Below are positions 28,446 through 62,359 of a stretch of DNA of 62,359 nucleotides, one piece after another. This DNA is from Gammaproteobacteria bacterium (lineage in GTDB: Bacteria > Pseudomonadota > Gammaproteobacteria > Pseudomonadales > JAHEGP01): the NCBI GenBank assembly GCA_030618705.1, contig JAUXCW010000001.1:1-62359 (forward strand), written 5' to 3'. A program made the translations under genes and the position numbers. The notes beneath the pieces are model-generated. The model was not told the DNA's origin. It saw only the letters and a list, made by a program, of their open reading frames with translations, and made no database searches. Each line of letters begins with the position of its first letter. The stretch's first letter is position 1.

Positions 28446-28509
28446 CGGCATTCGGGGCATGACCCCGCCGGCACCTCTGCTATGTTTTAACCAACAGCAG
28501 GGAATTTCT

Positions 28510-29370
28510 ATGGAAAGCAACAAGCTAAACCGGGCGGATAATGCTCCCGGCATACTCGACGAGCTGGAATCCGTCAAGGATGCGCTGCACGCCGTGGATG
28601 GTGATATCGAGGGCCTGCTCACCCGCCCCTCCAGCGAGCAGGCGCCGGGCAACGATACTGTGAGCACTATCCCGACACTGAATGACGTCGTCAACGAACC
28701 CAGCGCCGACCACCAGCTGTCCCGGACCAATAAATATAAGACGCTCAGTGATAGCGACCTGGAGCGGGCGGCGATGGCCGAAACGGAAGCGAATTCGGCA
28801 CCCGCTCCTGCGGAGCCTTTCACCGATGATGAAGCCGATATTGATTTCGAAGACGATCTCGATGATCTCGACCTCGAACTGGACAACGCCGACATAGCGG
28901 GACCGGGCGACGCCGAAGACGTCGAACTGCCTCCGGATGATTTTATCCTCCCGGATATCGAACAACTGGACGCCGATCTCGGTGTCGAACCCCTTCCCGA
29001 CACGGACCGGTTTGCGACCACCGAGAACGGCGAGTTTGCCCTGGACCTGCCCGAGGAATTTGATACCGATGTCGCCGGGGATACCGGTGAGTCGCCACCC
29101 GGAACGGAAACCGACGCGACACCTCTCCTCGACATCCCCGGTTTCTCCCTTTCGTCCTCGACCCGCTTTGACGTGACCGACGGCGGCCTACTGGGCGAAG
29201 TCGTGAGCCTGAATCCCGGCACACCATCGGCGCAGCCCCCGGCACTGACGCCGGAACAACTGACCCAATTGATCGAACAGGTTCTCGACAGCCACATGGT
29301 GTCGCTGCAGGAAGCACTACTTGAGCGCCTCGCCCCCTTCGTGAGCCACGATAACGACAAGCCGTCCTGA
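28510..29370 (+). CDS. highly acidic, probably disordered hypothetical protein between holC and valS
   Basis: Asp/Glu-rich (DDEADIDFEDDLDDLDLELDNADI...) with GC3-rich codons on the plus strand. The minus-strand ORF 28437..29384 is a Ser/Arg-rich shadow. Start uncertain (28459 or 28510). Confidence 0.5.
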   Translation: MESNKLNRADNAPGILDELESVKDALHAVDGDIEGLLTRPSSEQAPGNDTVSTIPTLNDVVNEPSADHQLSRTNKYKTLSDSDLERAAMAETEANSAPAPAEPFTDDEADIDFEDDLDDLDLELDNADIAGPGDAEDVELPPDDFILPDIEQLDADLGVEPLPDTDRFATTENGEFALDLPEEFDTDVAGDTGESPPGTETDATPLLDIPGFSLSSSTRFDVTDGGLLGEVVSLNPGTPSAQPPALTPEQLTQLIEQVLDSHMVSLQEALLERLAPFVSHDNDKPS

Positions 29371-29622
29371 CCCAAACGGCACACATAAGCGATATTTGCT
29401 GAGGGACCGGGACTTCCAGAGCAGGACCGTGCGCCGGTTGGACCCGGCGCCCGAGCCTACATGGCGGGATTTCGTTCCAGACGAATCCCAAGCTCGTACA
29501 TCCATGTACGAGACGTATTATCGGGGGGGCGCCTAGCTCGTGTCCTGGGCTGGGAGCCCCGGTTCCTTTCCCAACCACAATCGTGAACACCTTATTTTAT
29601 CAGCGCTGGCTAAGTAAGTGCC
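29371..29622. repeat. copy A of a roughly 210-250 nt highly structured intergenic repeat (second copy at 51404..51612)
   Basis: Aligned by eye. The 64-nt block 29401-29464 differs from 51436-51499 at 2 positions. A second block, GTATTATCGGGGGGGCGCCTAGCTCGNGTCCTGGGCTGGGAGCCCCGG, is also shared, as is a distal GTAAGTGCCA. Copy A carries an extra 50-nt insert (29465-29514). Confidence 0.85.
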
Positions 29623-29726
29623 ATTCCTCCCTGATCCCACTTATTCGATTCGGCACCACCCCTCGCCGCGCGCGGTAGGCGTGCTATAATCAGCGCCCTT
29701 TACTCGGGGGCAATACTGGCACGACC

Positions 29727-45896: not shown

Positions 45897-46517
45897 TCAG
45901 TAATCCAGTTCAAACCTCTCCAGGTGCACCAGGTCCTCCGGTCGGTCGATATCCGGCAGGGGCTCAAGTGCATGCCAGCTCCACCCCAGGGCAGCGATCC
46001 TGCCGAGGGTGATCTCGCAGACCGTCGCCCCGCCCCATTCCATGTCGGTGAACAGCGAACTGTCATAGCGGCGCAAGCCCAGGGCGACATAGCCACCGTC
46101 AAGGGCAGGAATAAGCACGGCATCATGTTTTTCCAGGCCGGCCAACAGGCGATGGTAGTGCTCCGGACCCAGGCCCGGACAATCACTGCCGCTGATCAAT
46201 ACACGGCCATAGCCCCGGGCAAAATTATCGCGAAAAGCCTGTGCCATTCGCTGCCCAAGATCGCCTTCGCATTGACGATGCTCGGATACACCCGGTGTGG
46301 CGAATGGGCTGGCCGCGGCCGTCTCGCCGTCCAGCCATAGCTGCACGTCACTGGTGGCTGCCAGCACCATCTGTTCGAGGCAATGTCGCGTCATCGCGCT
46401 GTGAAGACGGCACGCCCGCTCTGCGCCCAGCGCCGGAATCAAGCGGGTTTTGACCCTGCCCGCCAGGGGAATACGGCTAAACAGCATAGCGACCGAATAC
46501 AGGGGCGCCGGAGTCAA
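45897..46517 (-). CDS. DUF2064 / TIGR04282-like transferase ('transferase 1, rSAM/selenodomain-associated'; now named arsenosugar-biosynthesis glycosyltransferase)
   Basis: VAMLFSRIPLAGRVKTRLIPALGAERACRLHSAM is the family's N-terminal nucleotide-transferase-like motif. Proposed TTG start at 46517 overlaps the upstream stop (TTGA). The ORF-track start at 46580 is the alternative. Confidence 0.6.
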   Translation of the reverse strand: MTPAPLYSVAMLFSRIPLAGRVKTRLIPALGAERACRLHSAMTRHCLEQMVLAATSDVQLWLDGETAAASPFATPGVSEHRQCEGDLGQRMAQAFRDNFARGYGRVLISGSDCPGLGPEHYHRLLAGLEKHDAVLIPALDGGYVALGLRRYDSSLFTDMEWGGATVCEITLGRIAALGWSWHALEPLPDIDRPEDLVHLERFELDY

Positions 46518-47179
46518 CGGTATTGCCGTGCCAGCCAACGCGGGCTGGCACCCAAAAAATACAACAAACGCAACCGCCACATCAGCAATACGGTGCGCAA
46601 CACACCGCCGCTCTCCCAGCGCCGGCTCGAGGTTTGCAGCGGCAAGGCGACAAACCCTGGCGGTGCGACAGCACGCAATCGTTTGGACAACTCGACATCC
46701 TCCATCAAGGGCTGGTCGACAAATCCGCCCAGAGCCTGGAACAAGCCACGCCGGACAAATATTCCCTGGTCACCGGTAGCCACCGCCGTGATACGGCTGC
46801 GGCAGACGATCAGGCGCTCGATAAGGCGAAACACCCGCCGCTCACCACTGAGCACAAGGCCAAAAAATCCCCAATCTTCAGCCGCGGTTATCGCCTCGAG
46901 ATAGGCGCCGCCGGGAGCCAGCAGGACACTGTCCGCATGCAGGAACCAGAGCCATTCGCCCCGCGCAACGGCGGCGCCCGCATTCATCTGGATGGCGCGA
47001 CCGGCGGAATGCCGGAGGACTTGATCAGCCAGGGGCAGCGCCCTCTCCCCGGTGCCGTCGCAACTACCGCCATCCACCACGATCAGCTCGACTTCGTCGT
47101 GGCCCAGCCTTCCCAGCAGAGACTCGACCACCGCCGCTTCGTTCAGGGTGGGTATGATAATACTGACTCTGGGACACAC
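46514..47179 (-). CDS. GT2-fold transferase, TIGR04283-like ('transferase 2, rSAM/selenodomain-associated')
   Basis: VSIIIPTLNEAAVVESLL GT-A motif, VVDGGSCDGT, LHADSVL. Starts 3 nt after the rSAM gene's stop. Confidence 0.65.
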   Translation of the reverse strand: MCPRVSIIIPTLNEAAVVESLLGRLGHDEVELIVVDGGSCDGTGERALPLADQVLRHSAGRAIQMNAGAAVARGEWLWFLHADSVLLAPGGAYLEAITAAEDWGFFGLVLSGERRVFRLIERLIVCRSRITAVATGDQGIFVRRGLFQALGGFVDQPLMEDVELSKRLRAVAPPGFVALPLQTSSRRWESGGVLRTVLLMWRLRLLYFLGASPRWLARQYR

Positions 47180-47182
47180 TAC

Positions 47183-48163
47183 TCAGCCAGCCCCGAGCGC
47201 ACCACCGCAACTGCTGCCCTGGCCGGCCGTACAAGCATAGCAATGCTCGCCGACCCGGATTGGGGCTCCCACTGCCGGGGTATGCAGCAGGCTCGAAATG
47301 TGCACGCGCCGGGCATCGCTGGCCAGCAGGCCGGAGGGTGCCATCGGCAGGTCTATCATCTGGTTGAAGTCACAGTCGTAGAGGTAACCCTGCCAGTCAA
47401 CACTGAGCTGGGAGCGGCACATGACGCCAGTGAGGTTTTCCTCACTGTAACTGTCCTTGAGAAGCTGCATATAGCCAGCGTATTGCCCCTGCGAGAGCAA
47501 CACGGCACCGAAGCGATTGATCGGCATATTGGCGAGCGTGAACAAACTGTCAAACACGATGCCGTGTCGTTGCTGTAACTCCCGCTTGTAGTCCCCCTCT
47601 AACTGCACCTGTTCAGGCGGCAAATACGGCCCCGCCGGGTTATATACAAGACTCAGCTCGAGCCCTCGCCCCTGGCCGTAACCCAATGCGTTCAATTCGC
47701 GCAGGGCGGAGATACTCTCTTCATAGACCCCCTTGCCCCGTTGTTTGCTGACGTTTTCCTCCTGGTAGCAGGGTAGCGAAGCGACGATGCTCACCCCCTG
47801 CCCGGCGAGAAAACCGGCCATATGCCGATAGCCTGGCTGGCGCAGTATGGTGAGGTTACAGCGGTCTATAACGCTCACGCCCAGGGCCCGCGCCTTACGC
47901 ACCAGGTACTCGAAATGAGGATTCATCTCCGGTGCGCCACCGGTGAGGTCCAGTTGTTTTACCGAGTGTGTAGCCATATACGCCAGCAGGATTTCTATCA
48001 CCTCCAGCGACATCGATTCCGTGCGCTGGGGGCCGGCGTTGACATGGCAATGGGTACAGCTGAGGTTACAGCGATAGCCCAGATTGACCTGGAGGGTTTC
48101 CAATGCGCCCCGCTCAAGTGACGGAAAGTCCGTTTCAAGCAATAGCGCCCGGGTATCTTGCAT
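47183..48163 (-). CDS. arsS: radical SAM / Cys-rich-domain protein of the ArsS family (TIGR04167-like), Cys form
   Basis: LGYRCNLSCTHCHV (CxxxCxxC) and the family-typical C-terminal CYACTAGQGSSCGGAL motif. The symbol reflects family membership only; the substrate here is questioned in the findings. Confidence 0.75.
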   Translation of the reverse strand: MQDTRALLLETDFPSLERGALETLQVNLGYRCNLSCTHCHVNAGPQRTESMSLEVIEILLAYMATHSVKQLDLTGGAPEMNPHFEYLVRKARALGVSVIDRCNLTILRQPGYRHMAGFLAGQGVSIVASLPCYQEENVSKQRGKGVYEESISALRELNALGYGQGRGLELSLVYNPAGPYLPPEQVQLEGDYKRELQQRHGIVFDSLFTLANMPINRFGAVLLSQGQYAGYMQLLKDSYSEENLTGVMCRSQLSVDWQGYLYDCDFNQMIDLPMAPSGLLASDARRVHISSLLHTPAVGAPIRVGEHCYACTAGQGSSCGGALGAG

Positions 48164-48258
48164 AATGACTGCTCTTTCTCTGTTAACAGTTCAAACTACA
48201 ATGTTTTGACCACGCCACACGGCATGGTTCCCTCGAATATTCATCTCCCGACAGGCTT

Positions 48259-49062
48259 TCATCCGCCTTGCTTACTGGCGATGCGAGGCAGGAGGCGGTG
48301 AAATGTATTGGGAGCCATTCGCCGAAGCGCGTAGGCCAGCCTCAGCTTACCCCCCGCGATCACGATTTCGGCCTCGTCTTTAGCCAGGGCTCTCAGCAAC
48401 TGTACGACGAAATCCTCTACCGGCATCCCTGTGGCGATATCCGCATCCACTTCATCAAAGGCCTCCCCACCGCTGGTCAACGCATTGTGTGCCACATCGG
48501 TCTGAACATAACCCGGACAGACCACGTGTACTTGAACACCGGTGTCGGCGATCTCGGCGCGCAGGCAGTCCATAAAGCCGATGATTGCATGTTTGGCAGC
48601 GCAATAGGCGCTGCGCAGCGGGGAACCCAGCTTGCCCGCGATACTGGAGATGGTCACCACATGCCCCTCTCCCCGGTCGATCATCAGCGGCACAAGCCCC
48701 TTGGTCAGCGCCACAGTACCAAAATAATCCACCTCCATGATCTGCCTGTCCACCACCAGGGATGTCTCCAGGGCCAGGCTGCGCTGGCTGATACCGCCGT
48801 TGTTGAACAGGATATCGATACCACCGCTGTTATCCCATGCCTGCAGTGCACAAGCGGCAAGACCGTCGCTATCCGCCAGGTCGAGGACGAGGCATTTGTG
48901 TCGCTCGGGATGTACGCAGGCCTGGCGCACGCTTTCCAGCGCCTCCATTCGCCGCGAGGATAAAACCAGTTTTGCACCCATCGCGGACAGCTGCAGCGCA
49001 AGCTCGCGACCGATACCCGAGGATGCCCCGGTTATCCATACGGTTTTATCCTGGAATTGCAT
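48259..49062 (-). CDS. short-chain dehydrogenase/reductase (classical SDR)
   Basis: TGASSGIGRELA, NNGG, S...YCAAK catalytic motif. First gene of the minus-strand operon. Confidence 0.85.
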   Translation of the reverse strand: MQFQDKTVWITGASSGIGRELALQLSAMGAKLVLSSRRMEALESVRQACVHPERHKCLVLDLADSDGLAACALQAWDNSGGIDILFNNGGISQRSLALETSLVVDRQIMEVDYFGTVALTKGLVPLMIDRGEGHVVTISSIAGKLGSPLRSAYCAAKHAIIGFMDCLRAEIADTGVQVHVVCPGYVQTDVAHNALTSGGEAFDEVDADIATGMPVEDFVVQLLRALAKDEAEIVIAGGKLRLAYALRRMAPNTFHRLLPRIASKQGG

Positions 49063-49121
49063 GATCCTGCTCCCCTCCGACGGTGGCGTTATCCTGTATT
49101 ATCCGTTTGCTTCGTGCAACA

Positions 49122-49161
49122 GCCAATTTGACCCACCCCGTTCAAATACAGTCAAATTGGC
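49122..49161. promoter_or_regulatory. perfect 11-bp inverted repeat (candidate operator) in the SDR/arsS - selD divergent spacer
   Basis: GCCAATTTGAC (49122-49132), 18 nt, GTCAAATTGGC (49151-49161). Roughly central in the 151-nt spacer 49063-49213. Confidence 0.4.
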
Positions 49162-49213
49162 ACCGCTGGACTCTCCAGTGGACCATTCACCATGACAAGT
49201 CGGGATTTCGACC

Positions 49214-51403
49214 ATGCAAGCAGCCAGCGAACACGACCGCGACCTGGTACTGGTAGGCGGCGGCCATAGCCACCTGTCGGTGATCAGGCAACTGGCGATG
49301 GTGCCGATTGCGGGTTTGCGCGTCACCGTGGTGAGCAAGGACATCCACACCCCGTACTCCGGTATGCTACCCGGGCTCATCGCCGGCCATTACAGCGAGG
49401 ACCAGTGTCATATCGACCTGCGTCGCCTGTGCCAGTGGGCCGGGTTCCGCCTGTACCATTCGAGCGCGGTTCGCATAGACAGCCGACAACAAACCGTCCA
49501 TTGCGACAATCGCCCGCCCCTGCGTTACGACTGGCTGTCCATCAATACCGGCTCTACACCCGACCTGTCACGCATCGCCGGCGCCAGGGAGTACGGAGCC
49601 CCGGTCAAGCCCATCGCCGCATTCCTGGCCGCGCTGGAACACTGGCAGGCAAGCTTGCCATCGCGACCGACTCCTGCCTGGCTTACCGTTGTCGGAGGCG
49701 GTGCCGCCGGGGTGGAGCTGGCACTGGCAATCCAATATCGAATGCACAGGCAGGGACCACCAGGCAAGGTGCGCTATCGCCTGGTAAGCGCAGATAAGCG
49801 CTTGCTGCCTAGCCACAACCACCGCGTCGCGGGCTATTTCACCCATCTGCTAGAGGAGCGAGGCATCGAGCTGAACCTCGAACAGCGGGTGGACAAACTC
49901 GATGAGCACACGCTGTACAGCACCACAGGAGCAGAGCTGAAAAGTGATTTCACCGTGCTGGCGACCCATGCCGCGGCCCCGGCATGGCTGCGCGACAGCG
50001 ATATCGCTGTCGATCAGCGGGGTTTTATCCGGGTCAGCGACGAGATGCGCAGCACCTCCCACGACAATATTTTTGCCGGCGGAGACTGCGCCAGTATAGA
50101 GGGCGAAAACATACCCAGGAGCGGGGTCTATGCGGTGCGCCAGGGCCCGGTAATGGCCGAAAATATCAGGCGCCTGATCGAGGGACGCGGCCTGCGCCGC
50201 TACCGCCCGCAACACCGGTTTCTCTCATTGATGGCCACGGGGGAGCGACGGGCAGTTGCCTCACGGGGTCCTCTGTTTGCCGCGGGGGCCTGGGTCTGGC
50301 GCTGGAAGTCCCATATCGACCGGCGTTTTATGGCGAAGTTCAGCGAGTTGCCAGCAATGGCTGACAAGCCTGTCCAGCCAGCCGACGAGGAAATGCGCTG
50401 TGGTGGCTGCGGCGCCAAAGTTGGTAGCCAGGCCTTGCAGCGGGCATTGCAAAAACTGGGTGAGGATACCGGCAGCGGCGCGGCCCTCGCCATCGAGGAT
50501 GCCGTGGTGTTCACCCCTCCCGCCGACCGGCAGATGGTGCAGACCATGGACCACTTCCGGGCCTTTATCGACGACCCCTATCTGGTCGGCCGGATCGGCG
50601 CCAACCACTGCCTGGGGGATATCTATGCCATGGGCGCCACCCCGGATTCCGCACTGGCGCTGGCAAATATACCCTATGGTCACCCACGCATCATGGAGGA
50701 CACCCTGTACCAGCTTATGCGGGGGGCAGTGAGCACCCTGCAAGAGGCCGACGCGCGTTTACTTGGCGGTCACTCCGGCGAGGCCATGGAACTGGCCTTC
50801 GGCATGACAGTTAACGGCCACGTCGCCCCGGGGCAGGCGCTACTAAAAAGCGGCCTGGTGGCCGGACAGGCACTGGTGTTGAGCAAACCCCTGGGCACCG
50901 GCACCCTACTGGCTGCCAATATGCGCCACGCCGCTCGTGGGCGATGGATAGACGGCGCGCTGGAGAACATGCAGCAAAGCAATGCCACAGCTGCAACAAT
51001 AATACGCCAGTTCGGGGCCGGCGCTTGCACCGATGTCACCGGTTTCGGCCTGCTCGGCCACCTGCTGGAAATGCTTCACGCTTCGGGCACCGGCGCCGGG
51101 TTATTCCTGGATGCCATACCGTTATTGCCCGGTGCGGAGCAGTGTCTGCAAAAGCAACTCTTCAGTACGCTGCATCCTGACAACGCGAGCGTGCGCTCAT
51201 ATATTTCTAACGATGTTGCTCAGACGCATACCGCTCGCGTGGATATTCTCTTCGACCCGCAAACCGCCGGCGGCCTGCTCTGCGGTATCGCCGACGAGCG
51301 GGCGAAAGATTGCGTTGCTGCACTAAAGTTGGCAGGCTACCAGGCCGCGGTGGTGGGCCGGGTACTGGATACTGACGGCGAGGTTCGGGTGGAACTGGTT
51401 TAA
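49214..51403 (+). CDS. selD: fusion protein: FAD-dependent pyridine-nucleotide-disulfide oxidoreductase (TIGR03169-like) N-terminal half plus selenide, water dikinase (SelD) C-terminal half
   Basis: N-terminus LVLVGGGHSHLSV, VVGGGAAGVELA and FAGGDCAS (two Rossmann motifs). C-terminus MRCGGCGAKVG (Cys/Lys active-site loop), DDPYLVGRIGANHCLGDIYAMGA, TDVTGFGLLGHL (PurM-like). Confidence 0.85.
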   Translation: MQAASEHDRDLVLVGGGHSHLSVIRQLAMVPIAGLRVTVVSKDIHTPYSGMLPGLIAGHYSEDQCHIDLRRLCQWAGFRLYHSSAVRIDSRQQTVHCDNRPPLRYDWLSINTGSTPDLSRIAGAREYGAPVKPIAAFLAALEHWQASLPSRPTPAWLTVVGGGAAGVELALAIQYRMHRQGPPGKVRYRLVSADKRLLPSHNHRVAGYFTHLLEERGIELNLEQRVDKLDEHTLYSTTGAELKSDFTVLATHAAAPAWLRDSDIAVDQRGFIRVSDEMRSTSHDNIFAGGDCASIEGENIPRSGVYAVRQGPVMAENIRRLIEGRGLRRYRPQHRFLSLMATGERRAVASRGPLFAAGAWVWRWKSHIDRRFMAKFSELPAMADKPVQPADEEMRCGGCGAKVGSQALQRALQKLGEDTGSGAALAIEDAVVFTPPADRQMVQTMDHFRAFIDDPYLVGRIGANHCLGDIYAMGATPDSALALANIPYGHPRIMEDTLYQLMRGAVSTLQEADARLLGGHSGEAMELAFGMTVNGHVAPGQALLKSGLVAGQALVLSKPLGTGTLLAANMRHAARGRWIDGALENMQQSNATAATIIRQFGAGACTDVTGFGLLGHLLEMLHASGTGAGLFLDAIPLLPGAEQCLQKQLFSTLHPDNASVRSYISNDVAQTHTARVDILFDPQTAGGLLCGIADERAKDCVAALKLAGYQAAVVGRVLDTDGEVRVELV

Positions 51404-51612
51404 CCCAAATGCCGCTTACTTATGCCATATTGACGGAGGGGCCGGGGCTTCCAGAGCAGGACCGTGCGCCGGTTGGACCCGGCGCCCGAGCCTACATGGA
51501 TGTATTATCGGGGGGGCGCCTAGCTCGAGTCCTGGGCTGGGAGCCCCGGTCCCTTGCCCAACTACATTGTAAACGCCTTGGCTTATCGGTGCTTCGCTAA
51601 AGTAAGTGCCAA
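51404..51612. repeat. copy B of the structured intergenic repeat (see 29371..29622)
   Basis: Begins right after the selD stop and fills most of the gap to the convergent selU stop. Has a 17-bp closing stem (GGGGCCGGGGCTTCCAG / CTGGGAGCCCCGGTCCC) and internal hairpins (GCGCCGG-TTGGAC-CCGGCGC; TACAT-GG-ATGTA). Confidence 0.85.
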
Positions 51613-51617
51613 CAGGT

Positions 51618-52718
51618 TTAACCCGAAAACAGGCTGGCGCGATCCCGGCACCAGCCGAGTACCGCGGTGTAATCGCCACGATACACCACCCTTGATTCCG
51701 ACCGGGACAACTGATACTCGTACATGGGGTCGTAATAATCGCACAACAAATGGTTAATCCAGGCCTCGTGGGCTGACTGCTCGCCGCTACGCAATGCCAG
51801 CCTCATCAGCTTGTCCAGTTCGGCGTAGTGCTGCAGCCCCAGGCGTTTTTTAATCCTCCCCAGGCTGTCGAGCAGGTGCTGCTGAAGCATCCGCTCGCTG
51901 TTTTGTGGGTCTAGTGCCTGGTATTCGCGGCCCAACTCCAACACATACTCCTGGTAAATACGCTCGATCCGAAAGGCCAGCGGCATTTCCACGATGACCA
52001 GCGGCGCCTTGCGCATACTGCGAAACAACTCCGCGGGCAGGGAGACAGCTCCGATGCTGTGACTCTCATCTTCAAAAAACAAGTCGACCCCGGGCTGGTG
52101 TTCGGTGACAGTCAACAGATCGATGGCCAGGCGGTGTTCAAAATCGACCTGGGAGGGGGGCTCGGTGGCATGGCGGCCAAAGCTCGAGCCCCGGTGGTGG
52201 GCGTGGTGTTCCAGGTCGATGCCGGTGGCCAGCTCTTGCACCAACGGGGTTTTCGCCGCGCCGGTCTGGCCGCCGATCACCACCATGCCCCGACTGCCAG
52301 CGACGTTTTCGGTCACCGACATCAGGTAGCCACGCAGGGCCTTGTATCCGCCCTCGATCACCGGCACTTCACAACCGGCCTCGGCCATCCACTCGGCAGC
52401 CAGGTTGGAGCGCATGCCGCCACGCCAACAGTACAGATGGGTACTGCGCTGCGCCCGGGCAAACTCGCACCATGCCGCCACCCGCGCCGCCTTTACATCG
52501 CCACCGACCAGTTTATGCCCCAGGTCGACAGCCGCATCCCGCCCTTCCTGCTTATAGACCGTGCCGACCCTGGCCCGCTCCCCTGTGGTCAGTATCGGTA
52601 GATTGCGGGCGCCGGGAAATGCACCTTTGATGAATTCGACATCGGCGCGCACATCGATAAACGACGTCCCGTCGAGAAACAGGCGCTTGAATTGGTCGGC
52701 TCGTATCAGCTGTGTCAT
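51618..52718 (-). CDS. selU: tRNA 2-selenouridine(34) synthase
   Basis: Rhodanese active site YCWRGGMRS, N-terminus FIDVRADVEFIKGAFPGARNLP...GTVYKQEG, P-loop GGQTGAAKT. Close resemblance to E. coli YbbB/MnmH. Confidence 0.85.
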   Translation of the reverse strand: MTQLIRADQFKRLFLDGTSFIDVRADVEFIKGAFPGARNLPILTTGERARVGTVYKQEGRDAAVDLGHKLVGGDVKAARVAAWCEFARAQRSTHLYCWRGGMRSNLAAEWMAEAGCEVPVIEGGYKALRGYLMSVTENVAGSRGMVVIGGQTGAAKTPLVQELATGIDLEHHAHHRGSSFGRHATEPPSQVDFEHRLAIDLLTVTEHQPGVDLFFEDESHSIGAVSLPAELFRSMRKAPLVIVEMPLAFRIERIYQEYVLELGREYQALDPQNSERMLQQHLLDSLGRIKKRLGLQHYAELDKLMRLALRSGEQSAHEAWINHLLCDYYDPMYEYQLSRSESRVVYRGDYTAVLGWCRDRASLFSG

Positions 52719-61358: not shown

Positions 61359-62359
61359 CTAGCCGGCAAATGCCGCAATGCCGGTTTGCGCCCGACCCAG
61401 GATCAACGCGTGTACGTCGTGCGTGCCCTCATAGGTATTGACGGTCTCCAGGTTGATCATGTGCCGCATCACCGGGTAGGCGTCGGATATCCCGTTGCCG
61501 CCATGCATGTCCCGGGCCATGCGCGCAATGTCCAGCGCCTTACCGCAGGAATTGCGCTTTAACAGGGAGATCAACTCCGGCGCCAGTTTACCCTCACCCA
61601 TGAGGCGTCCGGCCTGCATGCAACCCTGCAAACCCAGGCCGATCTCCGTTTGCATATCCGCCAGCTTCTTTTGCACCAGTTGATTCGCCGCCAGCGGCCG
61701 CTGGAATTGTTGCCGCTCCATCACGTATTGCCGGGCCGCATGCCAACAGGCCTCCGCCGCGCCAAGTGCACCCCAGGCGATGCCGTAGCGCGCACTGTTG
61801 AGACATCCCATCGGCCCCTTCAGGCCCTCGACCCCGGGCAGCAGGTTCTCATGGGGCACAAAGACTTCCTCCATGACGATCTCACCGGTAACCGATGCAC
61901 GCAGGGATAACTTACCCTCGATGACCGGGGTGGCCAGGCCATCCAGGCCCCGCTCGAGAATAAAGCCACGCACGCGATCGTCGTCACACCTGGCCCACAC
62001 CACCATGATGTCGGCAATAGGCGCGTTGGTAATCCACATCTTGGCACCGCTGAGACAATAGCCACCCTCGACTGTCCTGGCCCGGGTTCGCATACCGCCG
62101 GGGTCGGAACCGGAATCCGCCTCCGTCAGGCCGAAAGAACCAATTTTTTCCCCGGTCGCCAGTACCGGCAGGTATCGTTCGCGCTGCGCCTCACTGCCGT
62201 AGGCATAGATGGGATACATGACAAGACTGGATTGCACGCTCATCATCGAGCGATAACCCGAATCCACCCGCTCGATTTCCCGCGCGACCAGGCCATAGCT
62301 GACATAGCTCACACCGGGACAGCCATAGCCCTCGATAGTGGGACCCAACAGACCGAGGG
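61359..62359 (-). CDS. gcdH: glutaryl-CoA dehydrogenase (N-terminus beyond the right edge)
   Basis: [74 protein letters not shown]. The frame stays open to the window edge. Confidence 0.85.

Follow-up and report, generated by a model that had tools for sequence, protein, structure and literature searches.

A palindromic intergenic repeat in an uncultured gammaproteobacterium is probably a distant relative of the Yersinia YPAL/RU-2 element

Contig JAUXCW010000001.1 of a Gammaproteobacteria bacterium (assembly GCA_030618705.1), whose 62,359 nucleotides are referred to here as the window, includes two copies of an intergenic repeat, and its relationship to the YPAL/RU-2 elements of Yersinia is the subject of this analysis. 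The two copies lie 22 kb apart on the same strand. Copy A (29377–29622, + strand, ~246 nt; nhmmer bounds 29370–29623) is found between a conserved hypothetical gene (28459–29370) and the valS promoter, within a pepA-holC-hypothetical-valS array. Copy B (51410–51610, + strand, 201 nt) fills the gap between two convergent genes, a selD fusion (49214–51403, + strand) and mnmH (51618–52718, - strand). The extent of each copy was taken from its alignment with the other. The genes upstream of both copies are real and have retained their C-termini. A first-pass annotation of the window had placed the start of both copies right after the stop codon of a plus-strand gene. This description fits both of them, copy A starting 7 nt past the stop, with the qualification that copy B also lies just past the stop codon of mnmH, which is on the other strand.

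A MAFFT alignment of copies A and B spans the whole element, ~200–250 nt. The block of 64 positions in which the similarity had been noticed was re-read from the sequence, and 29401–29464 and 51436–51499 are indeed identical at 62 of them. The second shared block, GTATTATCGGGGGGGCGCCTAGCTCG-N-GTCCTGGGCTGGGAGCCCCGG, is present in the window solely at 29515 and 51502, and the distal GTAAGTGCCA solely at 29614 and 51602, as had been stated. Probes of 25–29 nt from both blocks, searched with up to three mismatches, match only the two copies (chance expectation 0), and a probe search of the window for element-type ends found nothing beyond the ends of A and B. The terminal inverted repeats are imperfect, as TGCCGCTTACTT and the reverse complement GGCACTTACTT agree at 9 of 11 positions by manual count, and internal inverted repeats of 26 nt are located 27–56 nt inward of the element ends. 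Copy A alone includes a 48-nt insert (29465–29512, + strand), defined by the alignment gap, the fold and inverted repeat I5. The insert is positioned apically, inside the hairpin designated H1 below, and folds into two hairpins of its own, GGGATTTCGT-TCCAG-ACGAATCCC and CTCGTACAT-CC-ATGTACGAG. No coding capacity was found: the six frames of copy B, concatenated in order to catch spurious open reading frame calls on other copies, gave peptides without homologues among 5.8 billion proteins (E≤1).

Both sites are empty in every related contig that was compared. Four related contigs that keep the pepA-holC-hypothetical-valS order leave 77–83 nt before valS, where the window has 356 nt; in the alignment, all of copy A falls between the stop codon of the upstream gene and the conserved valS promoter and leader. 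Similarly, the gap between the selD fusion and mnmH is 18–26 nt in three related contigs and 214 nt in the window. A profile built from the two copies and searched with nhmmer against ~110 kb of related-genome sequence gave only seed-length chance matches. These metagenomic relatives are the nearest found and are themselves distant (valS 80–85% and mnmH 65–71% identical); among named relatives, Halieaceae, Parahalioglobus and Oceanicoccus come closest (valS 73–74%, mnmH ~55% identity). The host is an uncultured, marine-type gammaproteobacterium, Cellvibrionales/Halieaceae-like and outside the Enterobacterales, and the element has inserted at two unrelated gene 3′ ends in its lineage. The valS promoter/leader at 29655–29726 (CCCTCGCCGC ... 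TGCTATAATC ... TTTACCCGGGG) is kept in the relatives whose valS is 80–85% identical and is undisturbed by the adjoining element.

The flanks of the two copies were searched for target-site duplications, a check that the first-pass annotation had proposed, with different results at the two sites. At copy B a direct repeat of 17 bp, identical at 15 of 17 positions with a spacing of 218, brackets the element. Its left member, AACTGGTTTAACCCAAA (51393–51409), holds the selD stop codon TAA, and its right member, AACAGGTTTAACCCGAA (51611–51627), holds the mnmH stop codon, which reads TTA on the + strand (the mnmH open reading frame ends at 51618). Only 7 of 5000 random pairs scored equally or better. 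As a result of this duplication both convergent genes kept intact ends and their stop codons, and in the reconstructed pre-insertion site the stop codons of selD and mnmH would have overlapped in TTTAA. A terminator scan located a terminator-like hairpin with a T-run on the - strand at 51632–51656, where a 9-bp stem is followed by TGTTTTCGGG. The final codons of mnmH contain this hairpin, which is separated by 4 nt from the right duplication and is a dyad symmetry adjoining the insertion site of copy B. At copy A a possible remnant of a left duplication, CCTGACCCA (29366–29374), overlaps the TGA stop codon of the upstream gene and was aligned locally with a possible right remnant, CCTGATCCCA (29630–29639); taken alone this repeat is not significant, and no clear dyad was found at the site.

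The heptamer ACCCAAA is found immediately 5′ of both copies (29370–29376, TGACCCAAA; 51403–51409, TAACCCAAA). At copy B it is inside the target duplication, which suggests a target preference. An unoccupied TAACCCGAA is present at 62254 of the window.

A MITE-like (miniature inverted-repeat transposable element-like) mobile repeat was the third of the options that had been offered for the element, and it is borne out by the empty sites in relatives, the target duplication at copy B and the lack of coding capacity. Two known copies on the same strand and only 22 kb apart might also have arisen without transposition, if an intergenic segment had simply been duplicated locally, or copied by gene conversion, inside this contig. 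This explanation is hardly credible, as the flanks of A and B differ, the direct repeat at copy B is derived from the target and restores two stop codons, the outer arms of the copies are 29% diverged and therefore not the product of a recent event, and the element matches a mobile family of other bacteria, as described below.

Folding of the two copies reproduced three of the helices that had been proposed on paper, namely a closing stem (18 bp on folding), the CAGGAC/GTCCTG pairing and the GCGCCGG-TTGGAC-CCGGCGC hairpin. We designate these P1, P2 and H2, respectively, and a further hairpin H1. In copy B the 5′ arm of P1 (18 bp) and P2 (CAGGAC) is at 51437–51462 on the + strand and the 3′ arm, P2 (GTCCTG) followed by P1, at 51529–51554 on the same strand. 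Both arms are part of the fold, of an inverted repeat (I1, 26 nt, 85% complementary) and of the alignment to the YPAL-like model presented below. The G+C-rich hairpin H2 is at 51466–51485 (+ strand; fold and model), and its loop reads GTCCAA on the - strand. The neighbouring segment CGAGCCTACATGGATGTATT (51487–51506, + strand), delimited by the alignments to Rfam and RU-2, holds H1 (TACAT-GG-ATGTA), whose loop on the - strand is CATCCATG. The corresponding arms of P1 and P2 in copy A are at 29402–29427 (inverted repeat I1, 26 nt, 81% complementary) and 29542–29567, both on the + strand, and they likewise fold and form an inverted repeat. The folding z-scores on the + strand are -5.1 for copy A and -2.7 for copy B. 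The - strand of copy B gives -3.3, about equal to its + strand, as is expected of a DNA palindrome.

A single G.U to A-U change between the copies had been presented as a sign that pairing in the closing stem is kept. Three stem positions in fact vary. The G.U to A-U change is present as claimed, a second position changes from G-C to G.U, and at the third the pair is broken in copy A (A.C). A single change of this kind is no evidence of covariation, which cannot be shown from two sequences alone.

The element had been described as novel-looking and as matching nothing known. Standard searches found no close homologue: Rfam gave no match in the whole window at gathering thresholds, BLAST of copy B against plasmids gave no match, an exact 20-mer probe from the first block found 13 chance matches only among GTDB representative genomes, exact probes of 23 nt and of a second 20-mer gave 0 real matches in JGI metagenomes, and exact probes gave 0 matches in IMG/VR. 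A permissive Rfam scan nevertheless aligned the - strand of copy B to RF02770, Ysr224, at 15.9 bits (E 0.3). This alignment covers the H1 and H2 region and includes a run of 20 identical residues out of 20, which on the + strand reads CGAGCCTACATGGATGTATT; next to it is a G+C-rich hairpin that is also similar. In turn, the Ysr224 consensus shares 98% identity with an intergenic repeat carried by Yersinia plasmids, and 76–78% with repeats found on E. coli, Klebsiella, Citrobacter and Pantoea plasmids. The Yersinia plasmid copy is identical at 166 of 168 positions to RU-2 of Y. pestis CO92 (Delihas, PMC2759123), and RU-2 and YPAL (De Gregorio et al. 2006) are one and the same element. The + strand of copies A and B corresponds to the strand of the published RU-2 sequence.

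Compared directly, copy B is identical to Y. pestis RU-2/YPAL at all 20 positions of 51487–51506. When RU-2 is aligned locally to the + strand of copy B, the score is 28, as against 10.7 ± 1.8 (maximum 18) for shuffled sequences, i.e. ~10 standard deviations above them. The claim of novelty is thus not supported: the core of the element matches Yersinia YPAL/RU-2 in both sequence and structure, and a part of that Yersinia repeat is already in Rfam as Ysr224.

The relationship was then examined with a covariance model (R1) built only from 11 enterobacterial YPAL-like cores, from Yersinia, an E. coli plasmid, Enterobacter and several Pantoea lineages. These cores share four helices, a long P1, a P2 of 6 bp, H1 and the G+C-rich H2. 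The sequence of P1 is wholly different between the enterobacterial lineages and its pairing is kept. The loops are characteristic of the family: H1 carries CATCC(A/C)TG and is followed by a GCTCG linker, and H2 carries (A/G)TCC(C/T)T, of which the - strand loop of H2 in copy B is the counterpart. In the MAFFT alignment of the 11 cores 91% of the cells are paired, as against 37–42% in slid controls. Covariation within the family is strong, with compensatory changes in 22 of the 36 family pairs, and none of 500 shuffles reached these values of pairing and compensation.

Model R1 matched copy B on the - strand over its full length (51430–51561, model positions 1–122) with a score of 35.5 bits and an E-value of ~2e-7, R1 E-values being rough. 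The next best match in the window scored 11.6 bits and the best in 97 kb of sequence from relatives 14.2 bits. The matched region is 70% G+C. In a model-guided alignment copy B forms 34 of the 36 family pairs, and in 23 of these both partners have changed. That alignment is fitted to the structure, so that the count is biased towards it. Copy B also retains the CATCC loop of H1, the GCTCG linker and, in H2, a loop with TCC. Copy A belongs to the family solely through its unambiguous homology with copy B.

The published properties of YPAL provide a second line of comparison. YPAL elements are ~168 bp long, are not A+T-rich, have no TA termini and include internal inverted repeats; their target duplications are 3–26 bp long, their targets span or adjoin a dyad symmetry, and their sites may be filled or empty between Yersinia species (PMC2229807). 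Most Yersinia genomes include 37–144 copies and Y. ruckeri two (PMC2847712); beyond Yersinia, the literature lists a few matches in E. coli and one in Erwinia. The window element is likewise non-coding and intergenic without being A+T-rich, and its internal inverted repeats build a long hairpin. The layout of its core is also that of YPAL: P1 and P2, then a CATCC-loop hairpin, the GCTCG linker and a G+C hairpin whose loop contains TCC. Both kinds have long target duplications (17 bp at copy B, within the range of 3–26 bp) beside a terminator-like dyad, sites that are filled or empty between related genomes, and variable inserts in hairpin loops. The window element differs in its length of 201–246 nt, in its very G+C-rich P1 of 18 bp, in an extra segment between P2 and H1 and in its host, which is not one of the Enterobacterales, and it is too diverged for BLAST.

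We therefore regard copies A and B, with a probability of roughly 0.78, as non-coding, palindromic, MITE-like insertions in the 3′ regions of genes that form a distant branch of YPAL/RU-2. The element is accordingly not a new class of RNA but a repeat of a known kind, in a distant and lineage-specific form. Several observations weigh against this reading. Only two copies are known, counted in a contig of 62 kb. The Ysr224 score of 15.9 bits is far under the gathering threshold of 70, so that copy B falls outside the family as Rfam delimits it, and the count of kept pairs carries the bias towards structure mentioned above. Copy A was not recovered by R1, because of the 48-nt insert inside its H1. 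Its flanking repeat, CCTGA(T)CCCA, has 9 matches and one indel and is not significant alone, with 1139 of 5000 random pairs scoring as high. The outer arms and termini have, by eye, no similarity to the YPAL termini. No transposase or insertion sequence was found in the window, and for YPAL itself we know of no mobilising enzyme or transposase. A core that is 96% identical between the copies beside arms that are 71% identical is unexpected for a neutrally decaying insertion.

Some of these observations would also be compatible with a MITE-like element of the host lineage that is not homologous to YPAL, with motifs and layout that are convergent or alike by chance. Arms and termini unlike those of YPAL, the additional segment of ~13 nt between P2 and H1, a Ysr224 score under threshold and the roughness of the R1 E-values all point in this direction. 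Such convergence would have to account for a run of 20 identical residues out of 20 at the equivalent position, for four helices in the same order with the same loop motifs, for a score of 35.5 bits over a background of at most 14.2 bits, for an alignment score ~10 standard deviations over shuffles and for the same insertion behaviour as YPAL, and we consider it improbable.

The conservation of the element is uneven. Between copies A and B the core is identical at 113 of 118 positions (96%) and the outer arms at 56 of 79 (71%; Fisher p = 1.4e-6). Across the superfamily as well the core is retained and the arms are exchanged for others. This points to a core that is under constraint or subject to gene conversion, and the contrast suggests that the constrained part is the core and not the termini. 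This contrast could also be expected of a lineage-specific structured RNA gene, or of a cis element in the 3′ untranslated region (a stabiliser, a processing site or a small RNA), that is under selection in the host, with mobility being incidental or past and the likeness to YPAL due to a shared RNA module. Such a role agrees with the + strand pairing of the window copies, where 3–4 G.U pairs are set against a single A.C, numbers that are too few to weigh, and with the entry of a YPAL fragment in Rfam as the small RNA Ysr224.

Strand symmetry argues otherwise. In the enterobacterial family there are 16 G.U and 11 A.C cells, or 10 and 11 without the loop-closing pair. This balance indicates that pairing is kept symmetrically on both strands, which is more in keeping with a requirement at the level of DNA, as in a palindrome, than with selection acting on a single RNA strand. 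Copy B folds about as well on either strand, the genes preceding the two copies are functionally unrelated, and the sites are empty in relatives, with a target duplication at copy B. A host-selected RNA element is thus unlikely, somewhat less so than convergence with YPAL, and the option of an independent small RNA gene, which the first-pass annotation had also named, is without support.

Another possibility is tentative and on balance doubtful. The four-helix core with its invariant CATCC-type loops, present from Yersinia to a Cellvibrionales-like host, may itself be a functional nucleic-acid module, for example a structure recognized by a structure-specific mobilising enzyme active at terminator hairpins, or a domesticated RNA element of 3′ untranslated regions. 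If so, YPAL-like repeats would form a gammaproteobacteria-wide class that shares one mechanism.

With regard to mechanism, the MITE-like insertions A and B would have been mobilised in trans, with the gene for the enzyme located in another part of the genome, as would be the case for YPAL. We propose that this enzyme acts at or beside a dyad symmetry or terminator in the target and makes staggered cuts of variable spacing; a variable stagger would explain why the target duplications are long and variable in length. Once inserted, the element is probably transcribed passively as a 3′ untranslated region, following the hypothetical gene at copy A and selD at copy B. A terminator scan of the + strand found no terminator between the upstream gene and the element at either copy. 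In RNA the stem of ~24 bp would form a stable hairpin, which could slow the 3′-to-5′ decay of the mRNA. YPAL elements are reported to be located preferentially a short distance past stop codons, and YPAL-positive transcripts are said to reach higher levels.

Other small palindromic repeats were considered for comparison. Size variants of ERIC arise from internal insertions, and classical MITEs make short target duplications of fixed length, as against 17 bp at copy B. The sequence AAGTAAGTG is probably shared with the ERIC2 primer, and the element ends may have a short resemblance to the IS1 inverted repeat or to ERIC, which was set aside. ERIC/IRU elements share with the window element imperfect palindromes, a location in transcribed intergenic regions and a reported effect on mRNA stability, but ERIC is 127 bp long and belongs to a class described as A+T-rich with TA termini (PMC2229807). 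Classical MITEs such as Correia/NEMIS, RUP and Nezha are similarly small, non-coding and repeated, have inverted repeats and target duplications, and are often gene-adjacent and transcribed (PMC3733652). They are distinguished by terminal inverted repeats that are well conserved and correspond to the ends of a cognate insertion sequence, whereas the termini are the least conserved part of the window element, which has no known cognate insertion sequence.

Additional candidates were tried and rejected. ARAGORN found no tRNA-like or transfer-messenger RNA structure at either copy. An integron attC site requires inverted core sites, RYYYAAC at its 5′ end and GTTRRRY at its 3′ end, behind a cassette open reading frame; copy B is flanked by a GTTTAAC direct repeat, copy A lacks sites of this kind, and both copies are surrounded by housekeeping genes. 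Non-coding RNAs of the IS200/IS605 or IS110 type belong to elements that do not produce long target duplications, and none was matched by Rfam. Integration by a tyrosine recombinase with an att core was discarded, as the flanking repeats differ between the copies upstream of ACCC and are thus derived from the target. An element-borne intrinsic terminator has no U-tract past the main stem, only weak motif matches being found, and the insertion of one element into another, older one would leave a duplication flanking the core, where there is none.

Assigning the repeat to the YPAL/RU-2 kind removes a false lead to a novel RNA, given that the repeat family was described in 2006. It also widens the range of the family, to which the plasmid searches performed here added Pantoea, Enterobacter, Klebsiella and Citrobacter, and the window host belongs to a different order. 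The part that survives over this distance is the core of P1, P2, H1 and H2 with its loops, not the termini, and the contrast between core and arms offers a handle on what mobilises or constrains repeats of the YPAL type.

The identity of Ysr224 matters for the annotation of small RNAs. RF02770 corresponds to the first ~107 nt of YPAL/RU-2 (L025 1501–1607, on the Yersinia similis plasmid NZ_CP007231.1), so that the Rfam model covers a part of the element only and splits the closing stem P1. Ysr224 is thus a fragment of a mobile repeat. Three of the plasmid YPAL-like copies are flanked by a duplication of a whole rho-independent terminator hairpin, of 21 bp in L025 (1480–1500 and 1666–1686), 19 bp in L026 (1483–1501 and 1664–1682) and 28 bp in L027 (1426–1453 and 1646–1673). 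The last of these is slightly beyond the reviewed range of 3–26 bp.

The enterobacterial copies vary in arrangement. The Pantoea locus L032 includes two tandem copies (275–395 and 472–670), of which the latter has its H2 loop enlarged by an insert of ~80 nt, and the Enterobacter locus L033 includes two copies in opposite orientation (275–394, + strand; 496–616, - strand) that are ~100 nt apart. In Y. pseudotuberculosis L035 (230–364) the region around H1 differs and is ~15 nt longer. The inserts in the H1 and H2 loops of L035 and L032 are of the same kind as the apical insert of copy A.

As for other features of the window, a selenium-related cluster (45897–52718) is kept in the relatives and comprises the selD fusion, mnmH, a radical-SAM/DUF3641 gene and a DUF2064 gene. 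The fusion partner of selD is a pyridine-nucleotide-disulfide oxidoreductase, and the fusion scores under the TIGR04369 cut-off and over that of TIGR03169. The sole tRNA of the window, tRNA-Arg(TCG) at 2513–2590, is located in a region of ~2.5 kb in which crude open reading frame picking gave no gene.

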